Below are positions 4,649 to 11,852 of a stretch of DNA of 35,274 nt, one piece after another; position 1 is the first letter of the stretch, and every line of letters begins with the position of its first letter. Where the stretch lies: positions 1-35,274 of the forward strand of contig CADBFJ010000005.1 in the NCBI GenBank assembly GCA_902793915.1, in the 5' to 3' direction. A program made the position numbers and the translations under genes. The DNA comes from an uncultured Ruminococcus sp. Its GTDB lineage: Bacteria; Bacillota; Clostridia; Oscillospirales; CAG-272. Under the pieces are notes generated by a model. That model saw only the letters and a program-made list of their open reading frames with translations, had not been told where the DNA came from and did no database searches.

Positions 4649-4667
4649 AAAAGCACCCCGATCGGGG

Positions 4668-4711
4668 CAAAACAAAAGAAACGGCTATTCTATCAAAATA
4701 GTCGTTTCTTT
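4668..4711. repeat. R1-A: conserved terminator-like hairpin (GAAACGGCTATT / AATAGTCGTTTC) with an A-run before it and a T-run after it; copy 1 of 3
   Basis: The same ~44-nt sequence caaaacaaaagaaacggctattctatcaaaatagtcgtttcttt also occurs at 8793-8839 and 11521-11566. It lies directly after the ANTAR gene stop. Confidence 0.85.
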
Positions 4712-4766
4712 TTGTGTTGCGTGGGAGATATTGATAGAATCCACGCGAGGGGGGTAAGAGGTTACC
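4712..4766. repeat. R2-A: 55-nt conserved element, copy 1 of 2
   Basis: ttgtgttgcgtgggagatattgatagaatccacgcgaggggggtaagaggttacc aligns with 9048-9103 with about 6 differences. It contains the small hairpins CGTGG..CCACG and GGGGTAAG..CTTACCCC. Confidence 0.8.
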
Positions 4767-4883: not shown

Positions 4884-5138
4884 ATGGACACCAAAAGTAT
4901 TTTCAACCAGATGGAGCAGGTTCGCCGGGAGATGGCGACGATCGACCGAAACATGGAGACCGAGAAGCGGTCGCTTGATGGTTACGAGCGGCAGATTCAG
5001 GCAATTCAAAGGAGCGCCGAGCCGCACCGTCGCCGCATTTCCGAACTGGAACGCAAAAAGAGAGATCTGCAACGAAAGTTGGACACCCTCGGCCGCGATT
5101 ATCGCCGCGTATTGGAGTCGGAGAAAAAACGCAGATGA
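4884..5138 (+). CDS. small highly charged coiled-coil-like protein (84 aa), unknown function
   Basis: SD AAAGGAGAA lies 5 nt before the ATG. The composition is heptad-rich and Arg/Glu/Lys-rich, and the stop overlaps the next start (ATGA at 5135-5138). Confidence 0.6.
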   Translation: MDTKSIFNQMEQVRREMATIDRNMETEKRSLDGYERQIQAIQRSAEPHRRRISELERKKRDLQRKLDTLGRDYRRVLESEKKRR

Positions 5139-5677
5139 GCACATTTCCGATGTTAGAAGCGGCATTGGGCGGCGGATTTTGCCACGGTTCTCTCTTGTTG
5201 GTGGCGAGCAGGCCGGGCGTTGGGAAAAGTACATTATTGCGGCAGATCGCAGACGATTCCAACGGCATTTATCTCTGCAACGAACTCGACGCCGCCGGTG
5301 TGGAAAATGTGGCAAGGAGTGCGCACGGCAGGATTCTTTGTTTGGATTTTGACACCGCCGCACAAAGCATCACGGGAGAAACTCTAAAGCGGCTTGCGCA
5401 AAAATACGAAATCCCCATTCTGGTAGCGACAGGTGTATCCCGGAATTGCGAAGGGCGAGAAGATAAGCGCCCACGCCTTGCGGATCTGGATCAAAATCTG
5501 GTCGCCGCAGCCGACGTGGTTCTCGTGCTCTATCGGGAATCCTATTATCATTGCGGCATTTCCATAGAGCCGAACGACGACGAATTCATCCTTCGCAAAA
5601 ACGCACATGGGGAGATCTGCACCATTCCTGCCACCCTGCATCTCCCGGAACGTCTTTGGTCGGAACGGAAAAATTAG
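5135..5677 (+). CDS. truncated DnaB C-terminal-like (RecA-fold) P-loop protein, 180 aa
   Basis: GGGFCHGSLLLVASRPGVGKSTLL (Walker A in DnaB context) and LKRLAQKYEIPILVATGVSRNCEGREDKRPRLADLDQNLVAAADVVLVLYRESYY (DnaB H3/H4-like). It lacks the DnaB N-terminal domain and part of the core. Confidence 0.65.
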   Translation: MSTFPMLEAALGGGFCHGSLLLVASRPGVGKSTLLRQIADDSNGIYLCNELDAAGVENVARSAHGRILCLDFDTAAQSITGETLKRLAQKYEIPILVATGVSRNCEGREDKRPRLADLDQNLVAAADVVLVLYRESYYHCGISIEPNDDEFILRKNAHGEICTIPATLHLPERLWSERKN

Positions 5678-5679
5678 CC

Positions 5680-5708
5680 TTGCATTCCTGTCCCGAATAT
5701 GGTACAAT
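5680..5708 (+). promoter_or_regulatory. sigma-A-type promoter TTGCAT-17-TACAAT (with TGg extension) overlapped by dyad O2, GTCCCGAATATGGTAC (5690-5705)
   Basis: -35 at 5680-5685 and -10 at 5703-5708. O2 matches O1 at 13/16 positions, and its last 3 nt are the first 3 nt of the -10. Confidence 0.65.
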
Positions 5709-5739
5709 AGGATCAACCGGAATGAGAAAGGATGATCCT

Positions 5740-6729
5740 ATGGATACTCTGGAACCGAAAAAGTTAGCGCTCTTGCGGGTTTTGCAAATTCTCTGGAAGG
5801 AGAGCGACGCCGACCATCCGCTCCACCAAGGACAGATCGCATCGCTTTTGGAGCGAGAATACGGTATCGTGGTCGAGCGCAAGGCGATCGGGCGCAACCT
5901 CTCGCTCTTGCAGGAGGCAGGGTTTGAGATTGAAAACAACGGAGGCGGGTTTTATCTGAATTCCCGCCTTTTTGAGGATTCCGAGCTTCAACTTTTGATC
6001 GACGGCGTGCTGGCAAGTCGGCACATCTCGCTCCCGCACTCAAAGGAATTGATCGGCAAGCTCTGCCGGCTCTCCAATCGCTATTTTCCTCGCCACGTCT
6101 CGAACATTCATTCGGTCGGCGAGTGGAACAAGACCGAAAACAAAACGCTTTTCTATCACATTGAGCTTGTGGACGAGGCGATCGAAAGCGGGAAAATGGT
6201 GGAGTACGACTACAACAAATACGGTGTTGACAAGAAACTCCACAAAAGCTCCTTTCAGCGCATCAGCCCCTACCAGTTGATCTTACACAACCAGCGCTAT
6301 TATCTCATGGGGTACAGCTCCTATTGGAAACACATGGTCTATCACCGCATGGATCGCATCACAAACATGGTCATCTCGGAGCAGCCGCTTGTCCCGATCC
6401 GTACGATCGAGGGCTATTCCGACGGGATCAATTACCGCAACCTTTCCACCGCCATGCCCTATATGTTCGCCGAGCCGCCCGAGCGCATCACGCTCCGCAC
6501 CGGCGAGGGCATGATGGATCAACTTGTGGACTGGTTCGGCAAGGAGGTCATGGTGCAAAAGATCGAGGACGGCACCATCGAGGTCAGCCTCCACGCCGCA
6601 CCGACTGCCATGCTCTATTGGGCGCTCCAATACGCCGACGCCGTGGAAATTCTCAAGCCGCAGGGGTTAAGGGAGCGGATTTGCAAGGTGCTGGACGAGG
6701 CAAAGGGAAAATATCAACAAGGAAAGTGA
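5740..6729 (+). CDS. HTH-WYL-WCX family transcriptional regulator (BrxR/CapW/PafBC-like architecture)
   Basis: N-terminal wHTH (LALLRVLQILWKESDADHPLHQGQIASLL), WYL core (YQLILHNQRYYLMGYSSYWKHMVYHRMDRI) and a C-terminal extension. ATG 5740 has SD GAAAGGA. The ORF-track start at 5551 and ATG 5722 lie upstream of or too close to the predicted promoter. Confidence 0.75.
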   Translation: MDTLEPKKLALLRVLQILWKESDADHPLHQGQIASLLEREYGIVVERKAIGRNLSLLQEAGFEIENNGGGFYLNSRLFEDSELQLLIDGVLASRHISLPHSKELIGKLCRLSNRYFPRHVSNIHSVGEWNKTENKTLFYHIELVDEAIESGKMVEYDYNKYGVDKKLHKSSFQRISPYQLILHNQRYYLMGYSSYWKHMVYHRMDRITNMVISEQPLVPIRTIEGYSDGINYRNLSTAMPYMFAEPPERITLRTGEGMMDQLVDWFGKEVMVQKIEDGTIEVSLHAAPTAMLYWALQYADAVEILKPQGLRERICKVLDEAKGKYQQGK

Positions 6730-6739
6730 CGGTAGCAAA

Positions 6740-7876
6740 ATGGAAAAATTAAAAAATTTGTTCGACTATGCCACAAGCGAACTTTCACAGGATGCTTTTC
6801 TCTGTTGGCTTCTTGAAAACTACAACTGCGAGAATCCAGTCGTCAGCAGAGCCGCACTTGATCTACTTGGCAAAATGACAGATTTGGATTGCTCCAAGCC
6901 CGGTGCTGTAACCGAGTTAAAGACCGATCGACAAGAGACCGAGAACTATCCCAATCCCGAACCCAAAAAGGACGAGAAGAAGTCCATCCACTGCGTTTTT
7001 GATATTATTGTAACCTTTCGGTATCGTGAAGAAAAACACATGCTTTTGATTGAAGATAAAATCTTTTCTTCGCCAAGCAATAAACAAATCGGTTTTTACC
7101 CGCAAGCATTCAAAAAATATGCAGAAAGACATTGCATTCCGAAGGATAATCTATACCGTGTAATTTATAAGACGGATATTGATCTTTATGGATACAAGGA
7201 AAAATCTCCGGGATGGAATAAGTCTTTTTATCTTGACAACATTTATTCTTTTTTTGAAAAGCAACAACACTCCGGTTGTCTGATTTTTGACCAGTACCGC
7301 AAGCACATTTGCGAATTGCATGAAAAGACAACCAAACTTCCTGACAAACCTATGGCGGAATGGAAAGACCTCATCCTTTTCAGAACCTATATTCAGCAAA
7401 AGATACTCCCATTCGTCAACTCCAATTATGGCGATGTTCTAGAAGCAAGTCCTTCCGGGTGGATTTCTTATTCTGCAATTTGGATCGAACGCAAAGACAA
7501 TGACAACATCACAAAAGATAAAAAAGTAAGGTTTTCTCTTGAAATCAGTTTTTGGCGTCACACTCCCTCGGCGCGTATCACCTTGCGCGGCGGAAAAATG
7601 GAGGTAAAGAATAAGGATCTTTTTGCTAGTAAAAAGTTCAGGGAGTGGGCAGAAAGCAACTTGATTCGGGGAAGCAAAGGGTTTAGAGTTTATAGGCGCG
7701 ATTATTGTGTTGGACACAACAAAAAAGAATTTCTTTCTTATGAAAGCGGCATTGAAAAAGTAACGCAGGATTGCAAAGAATTGATTGAAGATTTTGCCAA
7801 AATGTGCCGTGAGATGAATAAAGAACTCCCCCAGCACCCCGACTGGCGGATTTTCTTGACAGAACGAGAAAAGTAA
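6740..7876 (+). CDS. PD-(D/E)xK nuclease-superfamily protein (PDDEXK_4-like N-terminus) with an unknown ~230-aa C-terminal region
   Basis: SELSQDAFLCWLLEN... then FDIIV...HMLLIEDKIFS...KQIGFY fits the E..D..(D/E)xK layout. It starts 11 nt after the WYL stop. The gene is AT-rich (19/60 GC at 7141-7200), unlike the WYL gene. Confidence 0.6.
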   Translation: MEKLKNLFDYATSELSQDAFLCWLLENYNCENPVVSRAALDLLGKMTDLDCSKPGAVTELKTDRQETENYPNPEPKKDEKKSIHCVFDIIVTFRYREEKHMLLIEDKIFSSPSNKQIGFYPQAFKKYAERHCIPKDNLYRVIYKTDIDLYGYKEKSPGWNKSFYLDNIYSFFEKQQHSGCLIFDQYRKHICELHEKTTKLPDKPMAEWKDLILFRTYIQQKILPFVNSNYGDVLEASPSGWISYSAIWIERKDNDNITKDKKVRFSLEISFWRHTPSARITLRGGKMEVKNKDLFASKKFREWAESNLIRGSKGFRVYRRDYCVGHNKKEFLSYESGIEKVTQDCKELIEDFAKMCREMNKELPQHPDWRIFLTEREK

Positions 7877-7906
7877 AGCAAAACCCCTCAATAAAACCGG
7901 GCTTTC

Positions 7907-7926
7907 GGGCGGTGTGTTTACCGCCC
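7907..7926. terminator. hairpin GGGCGGT-gtgttt-ACCGCCC between convergent genes
   Basis: A 7-bp GC stem lies between the nuclease-like gene (+) and the 146-aa gene (-). The U-tracts are weak. Confidence 0.4.
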
Positions 7927-7951
7927 TGTTCCAAGAGCTTTTATGCTTTTT

Positions 7952-8392
7952 TCAATCAAAAAGCACGTCCATCTTTTGTTGAAGAAAAGGAATACATTCA
8001 TTTACTGTTTTGGGTAAGTGTTCCCTCTGCATATGAATTTCGGCAAATGGTTTTTCGTCAGAATCATGCGGGATGCATACACGGATCATTTCCGAATATC
8101 CAAGCCCTTTTAATTGATCAACGGTTTCAAAGAACTCTTGATTTTGATAGATCATGTCCCATAAGATCAAGGTTTTAAGCACCGAAAGATCCGGATTGGG
8201 ATGGTATATGTCTTGAAAAGCAAAATCCGCAAAGCCGGAACAAATTGCATTGCATAAATCTTCGGCATAATACCCGAACTTTTCAATTCTCTCAATAATT
8301 TTACCCTCCACTTTTCCTTCCGTTTTTTTGACAAGCGCAATGATTTCATTGTTCCGATTTATTTCAAGCGAAATCAACATCAAAAAATCCAT
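7952..8392 (-). CDS. hypothetical protein, 146 aa, no recognisable motif
   Basis: Clean AT-rich ORF convergent with the nuclease-like gene. It has its own promoter carrying dyad O3. Confidence 0.55.
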   Translation of the reverse strand: MDFLMLISLEINRNNEIIALVKKTEGKVEGKIIERIEKFGYYAEDLCNAICSGFADFAFQDIYHPNPDLSVLKTLILWDMIYQNQEFFETVDQLKGLGYSEMIRVCIPHDSDEKPFAEIHMQREHLPKTVNECIPFLQQKMDVLFD

Positions 8393-8476: not shown

Positions 8477-8638
8477 TTTAATAGATATAAATACTCGTGT
8501 GCCTTGCCCAATCCACCCCTTTGAATTTGCCAATTTCGCACACGGGCACCCGCGCCGCTGTCCGTGAGCGAAAGCCCCGGAGATCATGCCGCCCCCTGGG
8601 GTAACTCATGGTTTACTCCTCTACCCCGCCGCTTCGAC

Positions 8639-8674
8639 CCATAATCCAACGATTACCCATAATCCAACGATTAC
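8639..8674. repeat. tandem 18-nt direct repeat ccataatccaacgattac x2
   Basis: Two exact adjacent copies; a single copy occurs at 11384-11401. It marks the left edge of the ~400-nt duplicated module. Confidence 0.85.
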
Positions 8675-8703
8675 TGTTTGAAATAAGCCAAAAAAGCAAA
8701 AAA

Positions 8704-8742
8704 GCAACCGTTACAGACCTGTTTTTGATCTGTATCGGTTGC
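8704..8742. terminator. bidirectional terminator-like hairpin (GCAACCGTTACAGA / TCTGTATCGGTTGC) flanked by A- and T-runs
   Basis: 14-bp stem with one mismatch. The homologous hairpin at 11430-11470 has a different outer stem sequence (GGCAGCC/GGCTGCC) but keeps the pairing. Confidence 0.6.
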
Positions 8743-8792
8743 CTTTTATTTGTTCAAAAACTCGAAAAAGCCCTTATTTCAAGCACTTTTTG

Positions 8793-8839
8793 GGCAAAAC
8801 AAAAGAAACGGCTATTCTATCAAAATAGTCGTTTCTTTA
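8793..8839. repeat. R1-B: second copy of the R1 hairpin
   Basis: Near-identical to 4668-4711 and 11521-11566. Confidence 0.85.
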
Positions 8840-9017
8840 TGGCACGGCATGAGGGATTCAGAACCAAACTGCGGCGAAAGGGGGGCTTTTCGTGCTCGTT
8901 CCTCTCTTCCTTGTTTTCGCCTCCGTGCACCGTTTTCTCGTCGGCTGAACGCCTCCGTTTTGCTTGCGGCAAAAACCGAAAACGGCAGGGGGTTGTTCAT
9001 TGCCCCCATCTCGCGCC
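8840..9017. repeat. X1: ~178-nt unit beginning with a degenerate copy of the tRNA-Arg 3' end (T-loop to CCA), then a 33-nt variable segment and a 78-nt block identical to X2
   Basis: 8840-8866 tggcacggcatgagggattcagaacc resembles the tRNA-Arg 3' end at 11776-11802. 8840-8880 matches 11567-11607 at 39/41. 8914-8991 is identical to 11641-11718. 8881-8913 is unrelated to 11608-11640 but has the same length. Confidence 0.8.
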
Positions 9018-9022
9018 AAAAA

Positions 9023-9044
9023 GGCGGATGCTGTTGCATCCGCC
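9023..9044 (-). terminator. intrinsic terminator on the minus strand (GGCGGATGC-aaca-GCATCCGCC followed by TTTTT)
   Basis: 9-bp GC-rich stem with a T5 tract on the minus strand (9018-9022). Confidence 0.65.
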
Positions 9045-9047
9045 TCG

Positions 9048-9270: not shown

Positions 9271-10218
9271 TTATAGATATGGATTTATTGGAAATGTTTT
9301 TTCTTCCTTCGCCCATTTTTCACTTTGAATCAACGGGTTAACCAATAATGAAATATCATTGAAATCCATACTGTTTTTAAAGCCTTTACTCCCATCTAAA
9401 AATCTACAATTCATCAATCTATCAAATGTTGCCTCACAACTTCGCCGCGGGTATCTCCCAAGTGTGGTGTCAAAAAAATCATTATGATAGGAATAATGAT
9501 GCGTATAAATAAACTCTTGCCATGACTCAAAGACCTCTTCTTCTGGACGTAAATCTACTATCTCGATTTCTTCCATTGTTCTATCCGTAACATTCCCCCA
9601 TGCATTTTTTAACATGGATACAGCTTCGACATCGCTTTTAGGTGCACTGTATCCAAAGATGGTTATCATATACGCTACTTCAAGTGCATTTTGTAATGCT
9701 TCCCATGATTTAGAAATGGCAGGATTTTTTTGATAATTCTTATTTTTTATTGGATATAGTAGCCCTATACCCTGTAGTGGTTCACCACATTTGCATTTAC
9801 CGCCGATATTACCAATGACATTATCTTTTTCACAATATCCTATTGCAACATTGCCATGAAGAAATGCAAGTGAGGTTAAACTCAAAATAAGAAAATCATA
9901 TACCGTCGGATTGTCGGGTATAGTATATTCCGATATATACTCATATATCTTCGTCTCAAGTTCCAATTTTGCTTTTTCATAAATACTACCGGGAGTACTT
10001 TTTTCTGAAATCTCCATATAGATATCTTCTAAATTATCCGAAGTAGTATCCAATGACAAAGACGAAATGATATTTTTTAGACCAAGTTTTTCTATAAACC
10101 CCTTCATTGCAGAAATCTTTTTCCCATTTTTATCACCGTTGGGTATTGCTGCACAACTCGCACCAGCACCAAGAATTACAACATGGGGGCGCCATTTCAT
10201 TTGTTCTTCATATGTCAT
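9271..10218 (-). CDS. compact SIR2/sirtuin-like NAD-binding protein (315 aa)
   Basis: VVILGAGASCAAIP (GAGxS...IP), AFLHGNV (catalytic-His-like HG) followed by a Cys cluster (C-x12-CKCGEPL), and ITIFGYSAPKSD (second Rossmann strand). AT-rich, and last gene of a 3-gene operon. Confidence 0.6.
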   Translation of the reverse strand: MTYEEQMKWRPHVVILGAGASCAAIPNGDKNGKKISAMKGFIEKLGLKNIISSLSLDTTSDNLEDIYMEISEKSTPGSIYEKAKLELETKIYEYISEYTIPDNPTVYDFLILSLTSLAFLHGNVAIGYCEKDNVIGNIGGKCKCGEPLQGIGLLYPIKNKNYQKNPAISKSWEALQNALEVAYMITIFGYSAPKSDVEAVSMLKNAWGNVTDRTMEEIEIVDLRPEEEVFESWQEFIYTHHYSYHNDFFDTTLGRYPRRSCEATFDRLMNCRFLDGSKGFKNSMDFNDISLLVNPLIQSEKWAKEEKTFPINPYL

Positions 10219-10223
10219 TCCTA

Positions 10224-10415
10224 TTATTTACCGCCAATCTCACAGCATATATCTTCAAAATCTCCATCTGGAATTTCTCGACCGATTTCATTTGACAAAA
10301 TGGTTGCCAGCATATTGGTCTTCACTCTTTTATTCGGGTACAAATCATTTTGAAGTAAGCGAAAGAAATTCTCGTCGCTTAAGCATTTTTGAAATAAAGT
10401 ATTTAAATCAATCAT
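10224..10415 (-). CDS. small protein (63 aa) paralogous to the N-terminal domain of the 283-aa protein
   Basis: MIDLNTLFQKCLSDENFFRLLQNDLYPNKRVKTNMLATILSNEIGREI aligns with MIDLKTLFQKHPDCISNENRFRALMNELYPNERAKTNVLATILSTGIGREI. ATG 10415 has SD GGTGAG; the ORF-track start at 10439 overlaps the upstream stop. Confidence 0.55.
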   Translation of the reverse strand: MIDLNTLFQKCLSDENFFRLLQNDLYPNKRVKTNMLATILSNEIGREIPDGDFEDICCEIGGK

Positions 10416-10435
10416 ACGCCCAATCTCACCACATA

Positions 10436-11287
10436 TCAATCCAAGCTAATCCACATCGCTGGGCGGACTGCCTTGGAATAGTCAACATTGTAGCCATAGT
10501 ACTCGACAGAGCCATCACGGTTGACATAAGCAGCGTTGCTAGATTGCATACCGGGTGACCGTAGCCACCAACGTGCCTCATTAACAAACCAACCCTCACA
10601 TTTCCTCGCTTCATCAGAACTAAAATATTTGTTTGCCTCTAGTATGCTCAATAGAAATACTTTATCGTTTGTTTTTTTACCAGGAGAAATCCTATAAGAC
10701 GGATTCTTATCAGCAGTAACGGTTGTACTTTGGATCTTTCTCTGTTCCTCTGCGCTGAATGCACAATTAAGAAAATCGTTGTTCAGCCACTTGCGCAATG
10801 AACAAGCTTCCCATGTTGTGGAAACAGAATACCCCGGCGGATCATGATACGGCTTGATAGTCAGCAAAATTTTGCTAATGATAAATGCTTTCCTATCCTT
10901 TTCGTCCAATATGAGCCATTCGATTGGAGCAGGTTCACCATACGCAGACTGTGGATAGCGCCCGAAGGTGATAATACCTCCATGTGCTACTGTTAAGTTG
11001 TTAGAATCTGCAAAACCGTCAGCAGTCGGCCACAGTTGCAAGCATTTCTCACACAAATCGCTTGCAAAGCCATATTCATTTTCCAGCCACTTCGCAAAGT
11101 TGCTTAAAGATAAATAGTCGCTTTTCCCGTTTTGAATCTCTCGACCGATTCCAGTCGACAAAATGGTCGCCAGCACATTTGTCTTCGCTCTTTCATTCGG
11201 GTACAATTCGTTCATCAGCGCGCGAAAGCGATTCTCGTTGCTTATGCAGTCAGGATGCTTTTGAAATAAGGTTTTTAAATCAATCAT
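10436..11287 (-). CDS. two-domain protein: unknown ~85-aa N-terminal domain plus a DUF6273-like C-terminal domain
   Basis: The C-terminal motifs RKWLNNDFLNCAFSAEEQ, DKVFLLSILEA, WWLRSPG and VRPAMWI match my memory of the DUF6273 family. There is no signal peptide. Confidence 0.55.
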   Translation of the reverse strand: MIDLKTLFQKHPDCISNENRFRALMNELYPNERAKTNVLATILSTGIGREIQNGKSDYLSLSNFAKWLENEYGFASDLCEKCLQLWPTADGFADSNNLTVAHGGIITFGRYPQSAYGEPAPIEWLILDEKDRKAFIISKILLTIKPYHDPPGYSVSTTWEACSLRKWLNNDFLNCAFSAEEQRKIQSTTVTADKNPSYRISPGKKTNDKVFLLSILEANKYFSSDEARKCEGWFVNEARWWLRSPGMQSSNAAYVNRDGSVEYYGYNVDYSKAVRPAMWISLD

Positions 11288-11325
11288 ATTGCTTTGCCCT
11301 CACAAAATCCGTTTCAATTTAGAAT

Positions 11326-11354
11326 ATTATATCACAAAGCCTTCTTAATTTCTA
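11326..11354 (-). promoter_or_regulatory. promoter for the 283-aa/63-aa/SIR2 operon: extended -10 TGaTATAAT with a weak -35 TAGAAA
   Basis: ATTATATCA at 11326-11334 on the plus strand. The -35 (11349-11354) lies inside one arm of the inverted repeat at 11350-11378. Confidence 0.55.
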
Positions 11355-11378
11355 CACTTTCAGCGAAAAAGTGTAGAA
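11350..11378. promoter_or_regulatory. inverted repeat TTCTACACTTT-N7-AAAGTGTAGAA (candidate operator)
   Basis: Perfect 11-bp arms overlapping the -35 of the operon promoter, with no flanking U-tract. Confidence 0.5.
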
Positions 11379-11383
11379 ACGCC

Positions 11384-11401
11384 CCATAATCCAACGATTA
11401 C
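11384..11401. repeat. single copy of the 18-nt repeat ccataatccaacgattac; left edge of duplicated module copy 2
   Basis: Identical to the units at 8639-8674. The homology continues rightward through 11742. Confidence 0.8.
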
Positions 11402-11429
11402 TCTTTGAAACGAGCCGAAAAACAAAAAA

Positions 11430-11470
11430 GGCAGCCTTTACAGACCTGTTTTTGATCTGCATCGGCTGCC
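11430..11470. terminator. bidirectional terminator-like hairpin (GGCAGCCTTTACAGA / TCTGCATCGGCTGCC)
   Basis: Homolog of 8704-8742 with stem-preserving substitutions. Confidence 0.55.
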
Positions 11471-11520
11471 TTATATTGATTCAAAAACTCGAAAAAGCCC
11501 TTATTTCAAGCACTTCCGGG

Positions 11521-11566
11521 GTAAAACAAAAGAAACGGCTATTCTATCAAAATAGTCGTTTCTTTT
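11521..11566. repeat. R1-C: third copy of the R1 hairpin
   Basis: Near-identical to R1-A and R1-B. Confidence 0.85.
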
Positions 11567-11742
11567 TGGCGCGGCATGAGGGATTCAGAACCCAACTGCG
11601 GCGAAAGTGATTGTATCCTACGCGCGCCGTCACTTTTCTCTTTTCGCCTCCGTGCACCGTTTTCTCGTCGGCTGAACGCCTCCGTTTTGCTTGCGGCAAA
11701 AACCGAAAACGGCAGGGGCTTCTCGTCCTCTCGTACGGCACC
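11567..11742. repeat. X2: second copy of the tRNA-Arg-3'-end-derived unit
   Basis: 11567-11593 tggcgcggcatgagggattcagaaccc matches the tRNA 3' end at 26 of 27 positions (one extra base). It carries the identical 78-nt block and a divergent 33-nt segment. Confidence 0.8.
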
Positions 11743-11775: not shown

Positions 11776-11852
11776 TGGCGCGGCATGAGGGATTCGAACC
11801 CCCGACCTACTGGTTCGTAGCCAGGCACTCTATCCGGCTGAGCTAATGCCGC
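11776..11852 (-). tRNA. tRNA-Arg (anticodon ACG), CCA encoded
   Basis: The minus strand reads GCGGCAT TA GCTC AGCCGGATA GAGT G CCTGG CTACGAA CCAGT AGGTC GGGGG TTCGAAT CCCTC ATGCCGC G CCA. It is 77 nt and close to E. coli tRNA-Arg(ACG). Confidence 0.92.

Follow-up and report, generated by a model that had tools for sequence, protein, structure and literature searches.

A probable horizontally acquired cargo cassette of an uncultured Ruminococcus sp. carries a deletion allele of a large gene family with a predicted SIR2 fold

The described systems closest to the locus presented here include antiphage systems with a SIR2 component, canonical sirtuin deacylases and proteins with a DUF6273 domain. 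In the SIR2-HerA antiphage complex, the catalytic pattern N-x-D...H is formed by N163, D165 and H212 (PMC11472057). An Asn...His pair has a catalytic role in DSR2 (N133/H171), and in ThsA it marks the binding site of nicotinamide adenine dinucleotide (NAD+) (PMC11087589). The DUF6273 domain has been described as C-type-lectin-like and, in gut phages, diversity-generating retroelements (DGRs) often target it (PMC10743442; bioRxiv 10.1101/2024.10.15.618418). The N-terminal domain in the IgA peptidase of Thomasclavelia ramosa is annotated as DUF6273 as well (PMC12402451). Here, we present a computational analysis of a three-gene locus, A-B-C, on a contig of an uncultured Ruminococcus sp. (GenBank assembly GCA_902793915.1, contig CADBFJ010000005.1). 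This stretch of 35,274 bp is referred to as the window throughout. Gene A encodes a DUF6273 protein with an additional N-terminal module, gene B a short protein related to this module, and gene C a SIR2-like protein. A preliminary description of the locus had proposed a new three-component SIR2 system in which the DUF6273 protein may act as sensor.

We consider it likely that the locus is a low-GC cargo cassette of 2.7 kb which was acquired horizontally, with C being a locally broken member of a family of stand-alone SIR2-fold genes, A a lectin-like protein and B a half-copy of the N-terminal module of A. The proposed three-component system did not hold, as the Asn/Asp motif of C is lost in the window and no linkage of the genes was found elsewhere. 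The genes and the elements discussed together with them are located as follows, where L001-L003 denote three metagenome contigs of the same lineage:

11326-11354, minus strand: promoter-like site 5' of gene A, with -35 TAGAAA, a 17-nt spacer and a TG-extended -10 TATAAT
10436-11287, minus strand: gene A, open reading frame (ORF) of 283 amino acids (aa)
about 11024-11287, minus strand: helical N-terminal module of A (N-module, about 88 aa), taken from the AlphaFold model
10224-10415, minus strand: gene B, ORF of 63 aa from ATG, or 71 aa from an upstream TTG
9271-10218, minus strand: gene C, ORF of 315 aa, deletion allele of a 344-aa intact form
9870/9871, minus strand: junction of an 87-bp in-frame deletion in C, placed by DNA alignment with L002, BLAST against L001-L003 and protein alignments
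9015-9045, minus strand: intrinsic-terminator-like hairpin, GGCGGATGC-AACA-GCATCCGCC, then TTTTTGG, about 225 nt 3' of C

The three co-oriented genes are separated by gaps of 20 nt (A-B) and 5 nt (B-C), and their GC content of 0.36-0.42 compares with 0.52-0.58 in the flanking housekeeping genes. Checks of ORFs, gaps and GC content confirmed the earlier picture of three closely packed, AT-rich genes. The single promoter with a TG-extended TATAAT that had been noted before A was recovered by a consensus scan, in which 10 of 12 positions matched in addition to the TG extension; the site is a pattern match only. The stem of the terminator-like hairpin was reported by the scan on the plus strand, and the T-run on the minus strand was read by eye. 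From their spacing and these promoter-like and terminator-like pattern matches, A, B and C are probably co-transcribed. A 22-nt direct repeat with the coding-strand sequence ATATG-YK-GTGAGATTGG-SS-GTA is present at 10229-10250 and 10415-10436, directly 5' of the start codons of C and B. Either a scar of duplication or a translation signal common to both genes may account for it.

Linkage of the three genes was examined in 80 loci with C homologues (39-63% identity), drawn from species-representative genomes with 6-kb flanks. Searches of C-homologue loci by phmmer with A, the halves of A and B gave matches in L001-L003 alone, and profile hidden Markov models for DUF6273 and the N-module agreed with this, having no match within 6 kb of the 80 C homologues. 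The N-module was found in 0 of 240 C-family proteins, and the C domain in 0 of 147 N-module proteins. The two C relatives that are closest among those with usable contigs, at 76% and 66% identity, have neither DUF6273 nor the N-module within 5 kb. One of these two adjoins genes for DUF6339 and a methyltransferase, and the other sits among PemK, RES, DUF3800 and type I restriction-modification genes. Likewise, the A relatives examined have no C gene nearby. The trio was found solely in four near-identical contigs, including the window, which belong to one species-level lineage. A conserved co-occurrence of SIR2 and DUF6273 genes, as expected from the preliminary description, was seen neither in the 80 C loci nor around the closest C relatives or the A relatives; a lack of such linkage in other genomes had been named there as speaking against the proposal. 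The best-supported reading of this distribution is that the trio represents a lineage-private cargo cassette and no conserved functional system.

Gene C itself belongs to a widespread family. At E <= 0.001, 3,761 homologous clusters (at 90% identity) were detected, and at least 296 C relatives were identified among 599 pattern matches examined in species-representative genomes. These relatives span Bacillota, Pseudomonadota, Verrucomicrobiota, Nitrospirota, Myxococcota and others. The homologues are generally about 344-350 aa long, so the 315 aa of the window protein, previously described as compact, reflect the deletion allele. In a subset of 437-451 aa (P0016, P0025, P0031, P0045, P0058, P0059 and P0063), an extra N-terminal extension of about 100 aa was observed, which has no Pfam match and is unrelated to the N-module of A.

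Sequence profiles were silent on the nature of this family. In Pfam, including SIR2 (PF02146) and SIR2_2 (PF13289), no match was obtained for window C at E <= 1 or for the intact allele P0002 at E <= 0.1, and scans of C and the intact allele against NCBIfam and PHROGs were negative as well. PADLOC returned only a weak match to PDC-S32 (E = 0.004-0.005) for C and the intact allele, which was not trusted. Searches of PDB sequences by phmmer and with two family profiles gave nothing relevant, and hhalign of the C family profile against CobB of E. coli yielded a probability of 1.3%. Some source databases label members of the family as "SIR2 family protein" or "SIR2-like domain-containing".

An AlphaFold model of P0002, based on an alignment of 146 sequences, reached a predicted local distance difference test (pLDDT) score of 90.8 and a predicted TM-score (pTM) of 0.91. 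A Foldseek search with this model against the PDB gave 120 matches at E <= 0.001, overwhelmingly to sirtuins among the 50 listed. The top match was the SIR2 protein of the SIR2-HerA antiphage complex (8wld_J, E = 3.3e-10, TM 0.52/0.53), followed by CobB, Sir2Tm, Sir2Af and SIRT1/2/5/6; BcThsA was matched as well (8bto, E = 5e-6). A SIR2 fold of the C family is supported because the predicted structure matches the SIR2 of SIR2-HerA, canonical sirtuins and ThsA. The earlier assignment of C as sirtuin-like therefore stands for the modelled fold of the intact allele, but no sequence profile sees SIR2.

All motifs listed in the preliminary description of C, namely GAGAS..IP, LHG, the Cys cluster and FGYS..D, are present. 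In alignments of 50 and of 146 diverse family members, G17-A18-G19, F123-N124-W125-D126, H150-G151 and G218-Y219 are invariant or nearly so, as are D118 and D225. C158, C171 and C173 are near-invariant, and only these three Cys residues are conserved. In the P0002 model, a strand at 119-122 leads into the FNWD motif, which is followed by a helix, a strand at 145-149 and H150. Directly after the H-G motif, the Cys cluster sits in a beta-hairpin. The zinc module of canonical sirtuins also directly follows the H-G motif. We take the motif order GAG, N-x-D, H-G, Cys-rich beta-hairpin and G-[TY]-S to be common to canonical sirtuins and C. Going by the order of the motifs and the modelled secondary structure, N124, D126 and H150 would correspond to the Asn, Asp and His that are catalytic in sirtuins.

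In the window, 29 residues corresponding to positions 117-145 of the intact protein (KDLIATFNWDPLLVQAYLRVMQYSDNLPK) are deleted from C. The loss comprises the F123-N124-W125-D126 motif, which is invariant in the family, with the beta-strand before it and the helix after it, and the His of the LHG motif is kept. Missing catalytic residues had been named beforehand as an outcome that would speak against the proposal, and N124 and D126 are gone with the deleted segment. Window C is predicted to be catalytically dead because the deletion takes a core Rossmann strand and the N-x-D motif, and a loss of function is the probable consequence. In L001-L003, C is intact, and these contigs are 99.7-100% identical to the window apart from the gap. 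The presence of an intact gene in three other assemblies of the same lineage with otherwise identical DNA, together with the fact that the window is one whole contig, would fit a minority variant or an error in assembly or sequencing, the real gene of the organism being intact. We regard this explanation as unlikely, since the deletion is exactly in frame and has TTAACCTCAA and TTTACCTAAA, two short and imperfect repeats, at its sides, a pattern expected from real slippage. In addition, clean internal deletions of 87 bp in unique sequence are rarely made by assemblers.

The genomic surroundings of C homologues are variable, and clustering of the neighbouring genes revealed no conserved neighbour. 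Two kinds of gene recur, encoding serine recombinases in 12 loci, where their position varies, and an RlmD-like methyltransferase in 10 loci. Both were considered as partners of C and rejected, as they are read instead as the recombinase of a mobile element and its insertion target; the pattern fits cargo of recombinase-type elements that have inserted next to the methyltransferase gene. Other immediate neighbours include AbiJ_NTD4, Cas1, Mrr, TIR_2, integrases, and type I and type IIG restriction-modification genes, as well as PemK, RES and the PADLOC candidate systems PDC-S32 and PDC-S22. Two targeted scans for neighbours matching PDC-S32 found none, and no tandem paralogues of C were detected. 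C had no match in the phage collection, and nine plasmid records were found. Taken together, the C family appears to be a stand-alone gene in mobile or defence-type regions with variable neighbours, the support for this being qualitative.

In 2 of the 80 loci, a gene resembling prokaryotic Argonaute (pAgo) is located directly beside the C-family gene (L075:6991-8667 and L079:4440-5975). Both are distant homologues from metagenome-assembled genomes, of Sulfuricurvum and Lentisphaeria, and the neighbouring genes match the PADLOC models for pAgo and for SIR2-associated Argonaute. A minority of the family may thus have SIR2 and pAgo in a split arrangement.

Among the known systems, the SIR2 protein of SIR2-HerA (8wld, 337 aa) is most similar to intact C, being its best structural match with a similar size and the same N-x-D...H pattern. 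In contrast, no sequence similarity between the two was detected, the PADLOC SIR2 models are silent, and ORF and Pfam checks of the cassette flanks showed no HerA-type neighbour. In the window, C has B and A as its upstream neighbours, and downstream a repeat is followed by a 146-aa ORF. Nor is HerA one of the 25 Pfam families that occur most often in the 144 genes immediately next to C homologues. A second group comprises ThsA, DSR1/DSR2, SIR2-APAZ/pAgo (SPARSA), Avs5 and KomC, to which C is linked by the Foldseek match to BcThsA and by defence-type neighbourhoods, whereas C is devoid of SLOG, APAZ, NTPase or large C-terminal sensor domains. No conserved TIR or pAgo partner of the C family was found, and the PADLOC models of sensor-type SIR2 systems did not match. 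With respect to Thoeris, there is no SLOG region in the 344-aa protein, no ThsA or ThsB match and no TIR among the cassette-flanking genes scanned. For DSR1/DSR2, the 315 or 344 aa of C compare with an architecture including a sensor domain of about 1000 aa, and PADLOC gave no DSR match. Concerning SPARSA, no pAgo is present in the window.

Canonical sirtuin deacylases such as CobB, Sir2Tm, Sir2Af and SIRT1-6 share the Rossmann-type fold with the C family. They differ from it in several respects: C has three conserved Cys only and, at its C-terminus, about 60 aa of additional helical structure, it is not matched by the Pfam SIR2 model, and its context is of the mobile or defence type. An alternative explanation is that the family represents divergent true sirtuins instead of immune NADases, that is, NAD-dependent deacylases or ADP-ribosyltransferases acting on a specific target such as a mobile-element regulator or a toxin. 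This would agree with the canonical deacylases that make up most Foldseek matches, with the Cys cluster at the position of the zinc module, and with GNAT acetyltransferases in 4 of 144 immediate neighbours. The best structural match, however, is an antiphage SIR2, PF02146 is silent, the hhalign comparison with CobB was negative and just three Cys are conserved. Moreover, housekeeping sirtuins do not typically show such a patchy distribution, in which the context is always variable and of the mobile or defence type. We therefore judge a true-sirtuin role to be rather improbable and retain the reading of intact C as a putative NAD-consuming effector.

For gene A, the preliminary description of a 283-aa protein consisting of an N-terminal domain and DUF6273 without a signal peptide was borne out. 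The Pfam model DUF6273 (PF19789) matches residues 133-281 with E = 1.9e-28 and 99.9 bits, compared with a cutoff of 23.5, and a hydrophobic stretch is absent from the N-terminus as read from the sequence. The AlphaFold model of A, based on 47 aligned sequences, has a pLDDT of 88.3 and shows a helical bundle (aa 1-85) that a disordered linker (aa 92-98) joins to a mixed alpha/beta domain (aa ~105-281). In Foldseek searches, the sole significant PDB match was the T. ramosa IgA peptidase (9qa6), and many DUF6273 proteins of gut phages were matched in the viral library. The same library also gave two weak matches, one to DUF1566 (E = 1.4e-3) and another to a C-type lectin (E = 0.04). The C-terminal domain of A, recognized by both profile and fold, is a C-type-lectin-like DUF6273 binding domain. 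A segment of about 18 aa with a near-invariant Thr (consensus PTxYAxAxGAY...), shared by all the homologues aligned, is missing from it. The missing segment falls after Cys230, within window positions 10436-10600, and the confidence of the model dips there.

In comparison with DUF6273 proteins known as DGR targets, A shares the clear Pfam match and the structural match to phage DUF6273 models and 9qa6. It differs in the N-terminal helical module and the missing 18-aa segment, and there is no active DGR in the window and no signal peptide or phage tail context. The possibility that A and B form a DGR target was rejected: the window contains no template-repeat copy of the 3' end of A and no reverse transcriptase was identified, the repeat between A and B covers the 5' end, and the mismatches are mostly G>A and C>T and not adenine-specific.

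The N-module of A, for which there is no Pfam model, is strictly N-terminal in 334 representative clusters and may serve as an adaptor or in targeting or secretion. Fusion partners in the 119 proteins scanned were mostly BspA-type LRR_5 (53/119), followed by LRR_8 (37/119), DUF6273 (8/119), RCC1 (4/119), FNIP (4/119) and Sel1 (2/119). Two full-length relatives of A (about 41% identity) are located in the cargo of conjugative elements, beside TraG/type IV secretion system coupling and integrase genes, and several A paralogues sometimes occur together in such cargo. Neither an N-module fragment nor a further N-module ORF was found beside these two relatives. In addition, fusions of an N-terminal TIR_2 to a C-terminal DUF6273 domain exist (P0328 and P0329; L093:5001-6122). 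This architecture is typical of single-protein immune sensors. The genomic context of one such fusion was uninformative.

On its sequence, B arose as a shortened copy of the N-module of A, of which it duplicates the first half. It matches residues 1-54 of A with 69% identity (BLASTP, E = 4e-23) and ends with 9 unrelated residues. At the DNA level, A and B are 80% identical over 122 nt (repeat D2), which start exactly at the ATG and end about halfway through the N-module. The relation to the N-terminal domain of A that had been claimed for the 63-aa protein is correct in that this match was found, but it covers only the first ~54 residues of the domain, so that B carries about 54 of the 88 residues of the module. 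The ratio of nonsynonymous to synonymous substitution rates (dN/dS) between A and B is 0.31 over 51 codons, a small sample which provides weak evidence of constraint. Profile-library scans, including Pfam, PADLOC and NCBIfam, gave no family match for B.

The features of A and B bear on an alternative close to the original proposal, in which A-B-C is a lineage-specific defence system: the lectin-like A would sense phage, the N-module in A and B would serve as a homotypic adaptor and C would deplete NAD. Several observations are consistent with it, namely the tight co-orientation of the genes with one promoter-like site and a terminator-like hairpin after C, the duplication of the N-module in B with its dN/dS of 0.31, the 22-nt repeat before the starts of B and C, and the SIR2 fold predicted for C. 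The TIR_2 fusions further suggest that DUF6273 may serve cytoplasmic immune-type proteins. We nevertheless hold this system to be very unlikely. Co-occurrence is not seen beyond one species-level lineage, either in the 80 genomes or in the nearest relatives, and the N-module and the C domain were not found together on any of the proteins tested. Furthermore, in the window, B has about 54 of 88 module residues, A is without the 18-aa DUF6273 segment and C is without N-x-D. A variant of this idea, to which we assign a very low probability, is that the intact cassette of this one lineage would be a newly assembled immune module, with A as sensor, C as effector and the N-module with B as homotypic adaptor, and that the window copy was recently inactivated. 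The adaptor role is derived by analogy with the effector-associated adaptor domains that have been postulated in other conflict systems.

The reading of A-B-C as an acquired cargo cassette is in keeping with its setting. The earlier placement of the genes in a tRNA-linked island beside a WYL/nuclease module was reproduced, as the tRNA-Arg, the WYL-WCX and the PD-(D/E)XK genes were all located:

11776-11852, minus strand: tRNA-Arg (ACG), found by ARAGORN and by the Rfam tRNA model (63 bits), anchor of the low-GC island
11380-11721: tRNA-side repeat copy, with a degenerate fragment of the tRNA-Arg 3' end at 11563-11593
8635-8994: distal repeat copy (repeat families D1, D3, D4 and D5), with a degenerate fragment of the tRNA-Arg 3' end at 8836-8866
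7952-8392, minus strand: gene of 146 aa with no assigned function, past the distal repeat
6740-7876: PD-(D/E)XK_4 gene of low GC content, past the distal repeat
5551-6729: WYL-WCX gene, past the distal repeat
5135-5677: DnaB_C-like fragment, past the distal repeat

The cassette is bracketed by the two direct repeats of about 340 nt, which are 91-93% identical and spaced by 2727 nt. Apart from the tRNA, an Rfam scan of the region from 4.5 to 12 kb detected nothing. Low GC content, the adjacent tRNA-Arg and the direct repeats support the horizontal acquisition of A-B-C, as far as this can be read from sequence features. The genes at 5135-8392 sit between the ANTAR and glutamine-synthetase genes and the cassette; these four may form a separate WYL-regulated nuclease module or a mobile-element remnant. 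A 52-nt hairpin and a 43-nt block of the repeat junctions are found again just past the ANTAR gene, at 4663-4754. By its appearance, the island was assembled from modules at a tRNA-linked site via one recurring junction sequence, with A-B-C as one module of 2.7 kb. The search for a cassette-free site by means of the adjacent 142-aa gene returned solely the same four contigs. In contig L001, synteny with the window stops exactly at the 3' end of the tRNA-Arg (L001:4020, corresponding to window position 11776). Past that point, the island is joined to CTP-synthase and asparagine-synthase genes, and no tRNA is present. A rearrangement, a second site of insertion or chimerism in the assembly could each account for this junction.

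Several points weigh against the interpretation of the locus as a cargo cassette with a broken SIR2-fold gene. The SIR2 assignment comes from a predicted structure with moderate TM-scores (0.35-0.53), all sequence profiles being negative, and the equivalence of N124, D126 and H150 is drawn from motif order and secondary structure. An error in the assembly or sequencing of this one contig could underlie the deletion. The defence association of the C family is qualitative. As to B, its dN/dS hints at selection rather than decay, and a lineage-private functional pairing of A, B and C would also be compatible with the comparative genomics.

By analogy to characterised SIR2 effectors, an intact C-family protein would be expected to bind NAD+ and to cleave it or transfer from it. 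Such a protein would then act alone as an NAD-consuming effector, leading to abortive infection once triggered. The 87-bp in-frame deletion would make window C a natural loss-of-function allele, and such alleles are expected for costly abortive-infection genes.

As the proposed three-component system did not hold, the pairing of SIR2 with DUF6273 should not be used to found a new system class. What the locus points to is the C family, a very large family of compact, stand-alone genes with a predicted SIR2 fold, which is not seen by Pfam, NCBIfam and PADLOC 2.0. As a kind, SIR2-fold proteins of defence-type regions are already known, and the family is a reasonable candidate for experimental testing. 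If intact C indeed functions as a single-gene NAD-consuming effector, this would raise the question of what triggers a 345-aa protein without an obvious sensor domain, and would extend the repertoire of SIR2-based defence.

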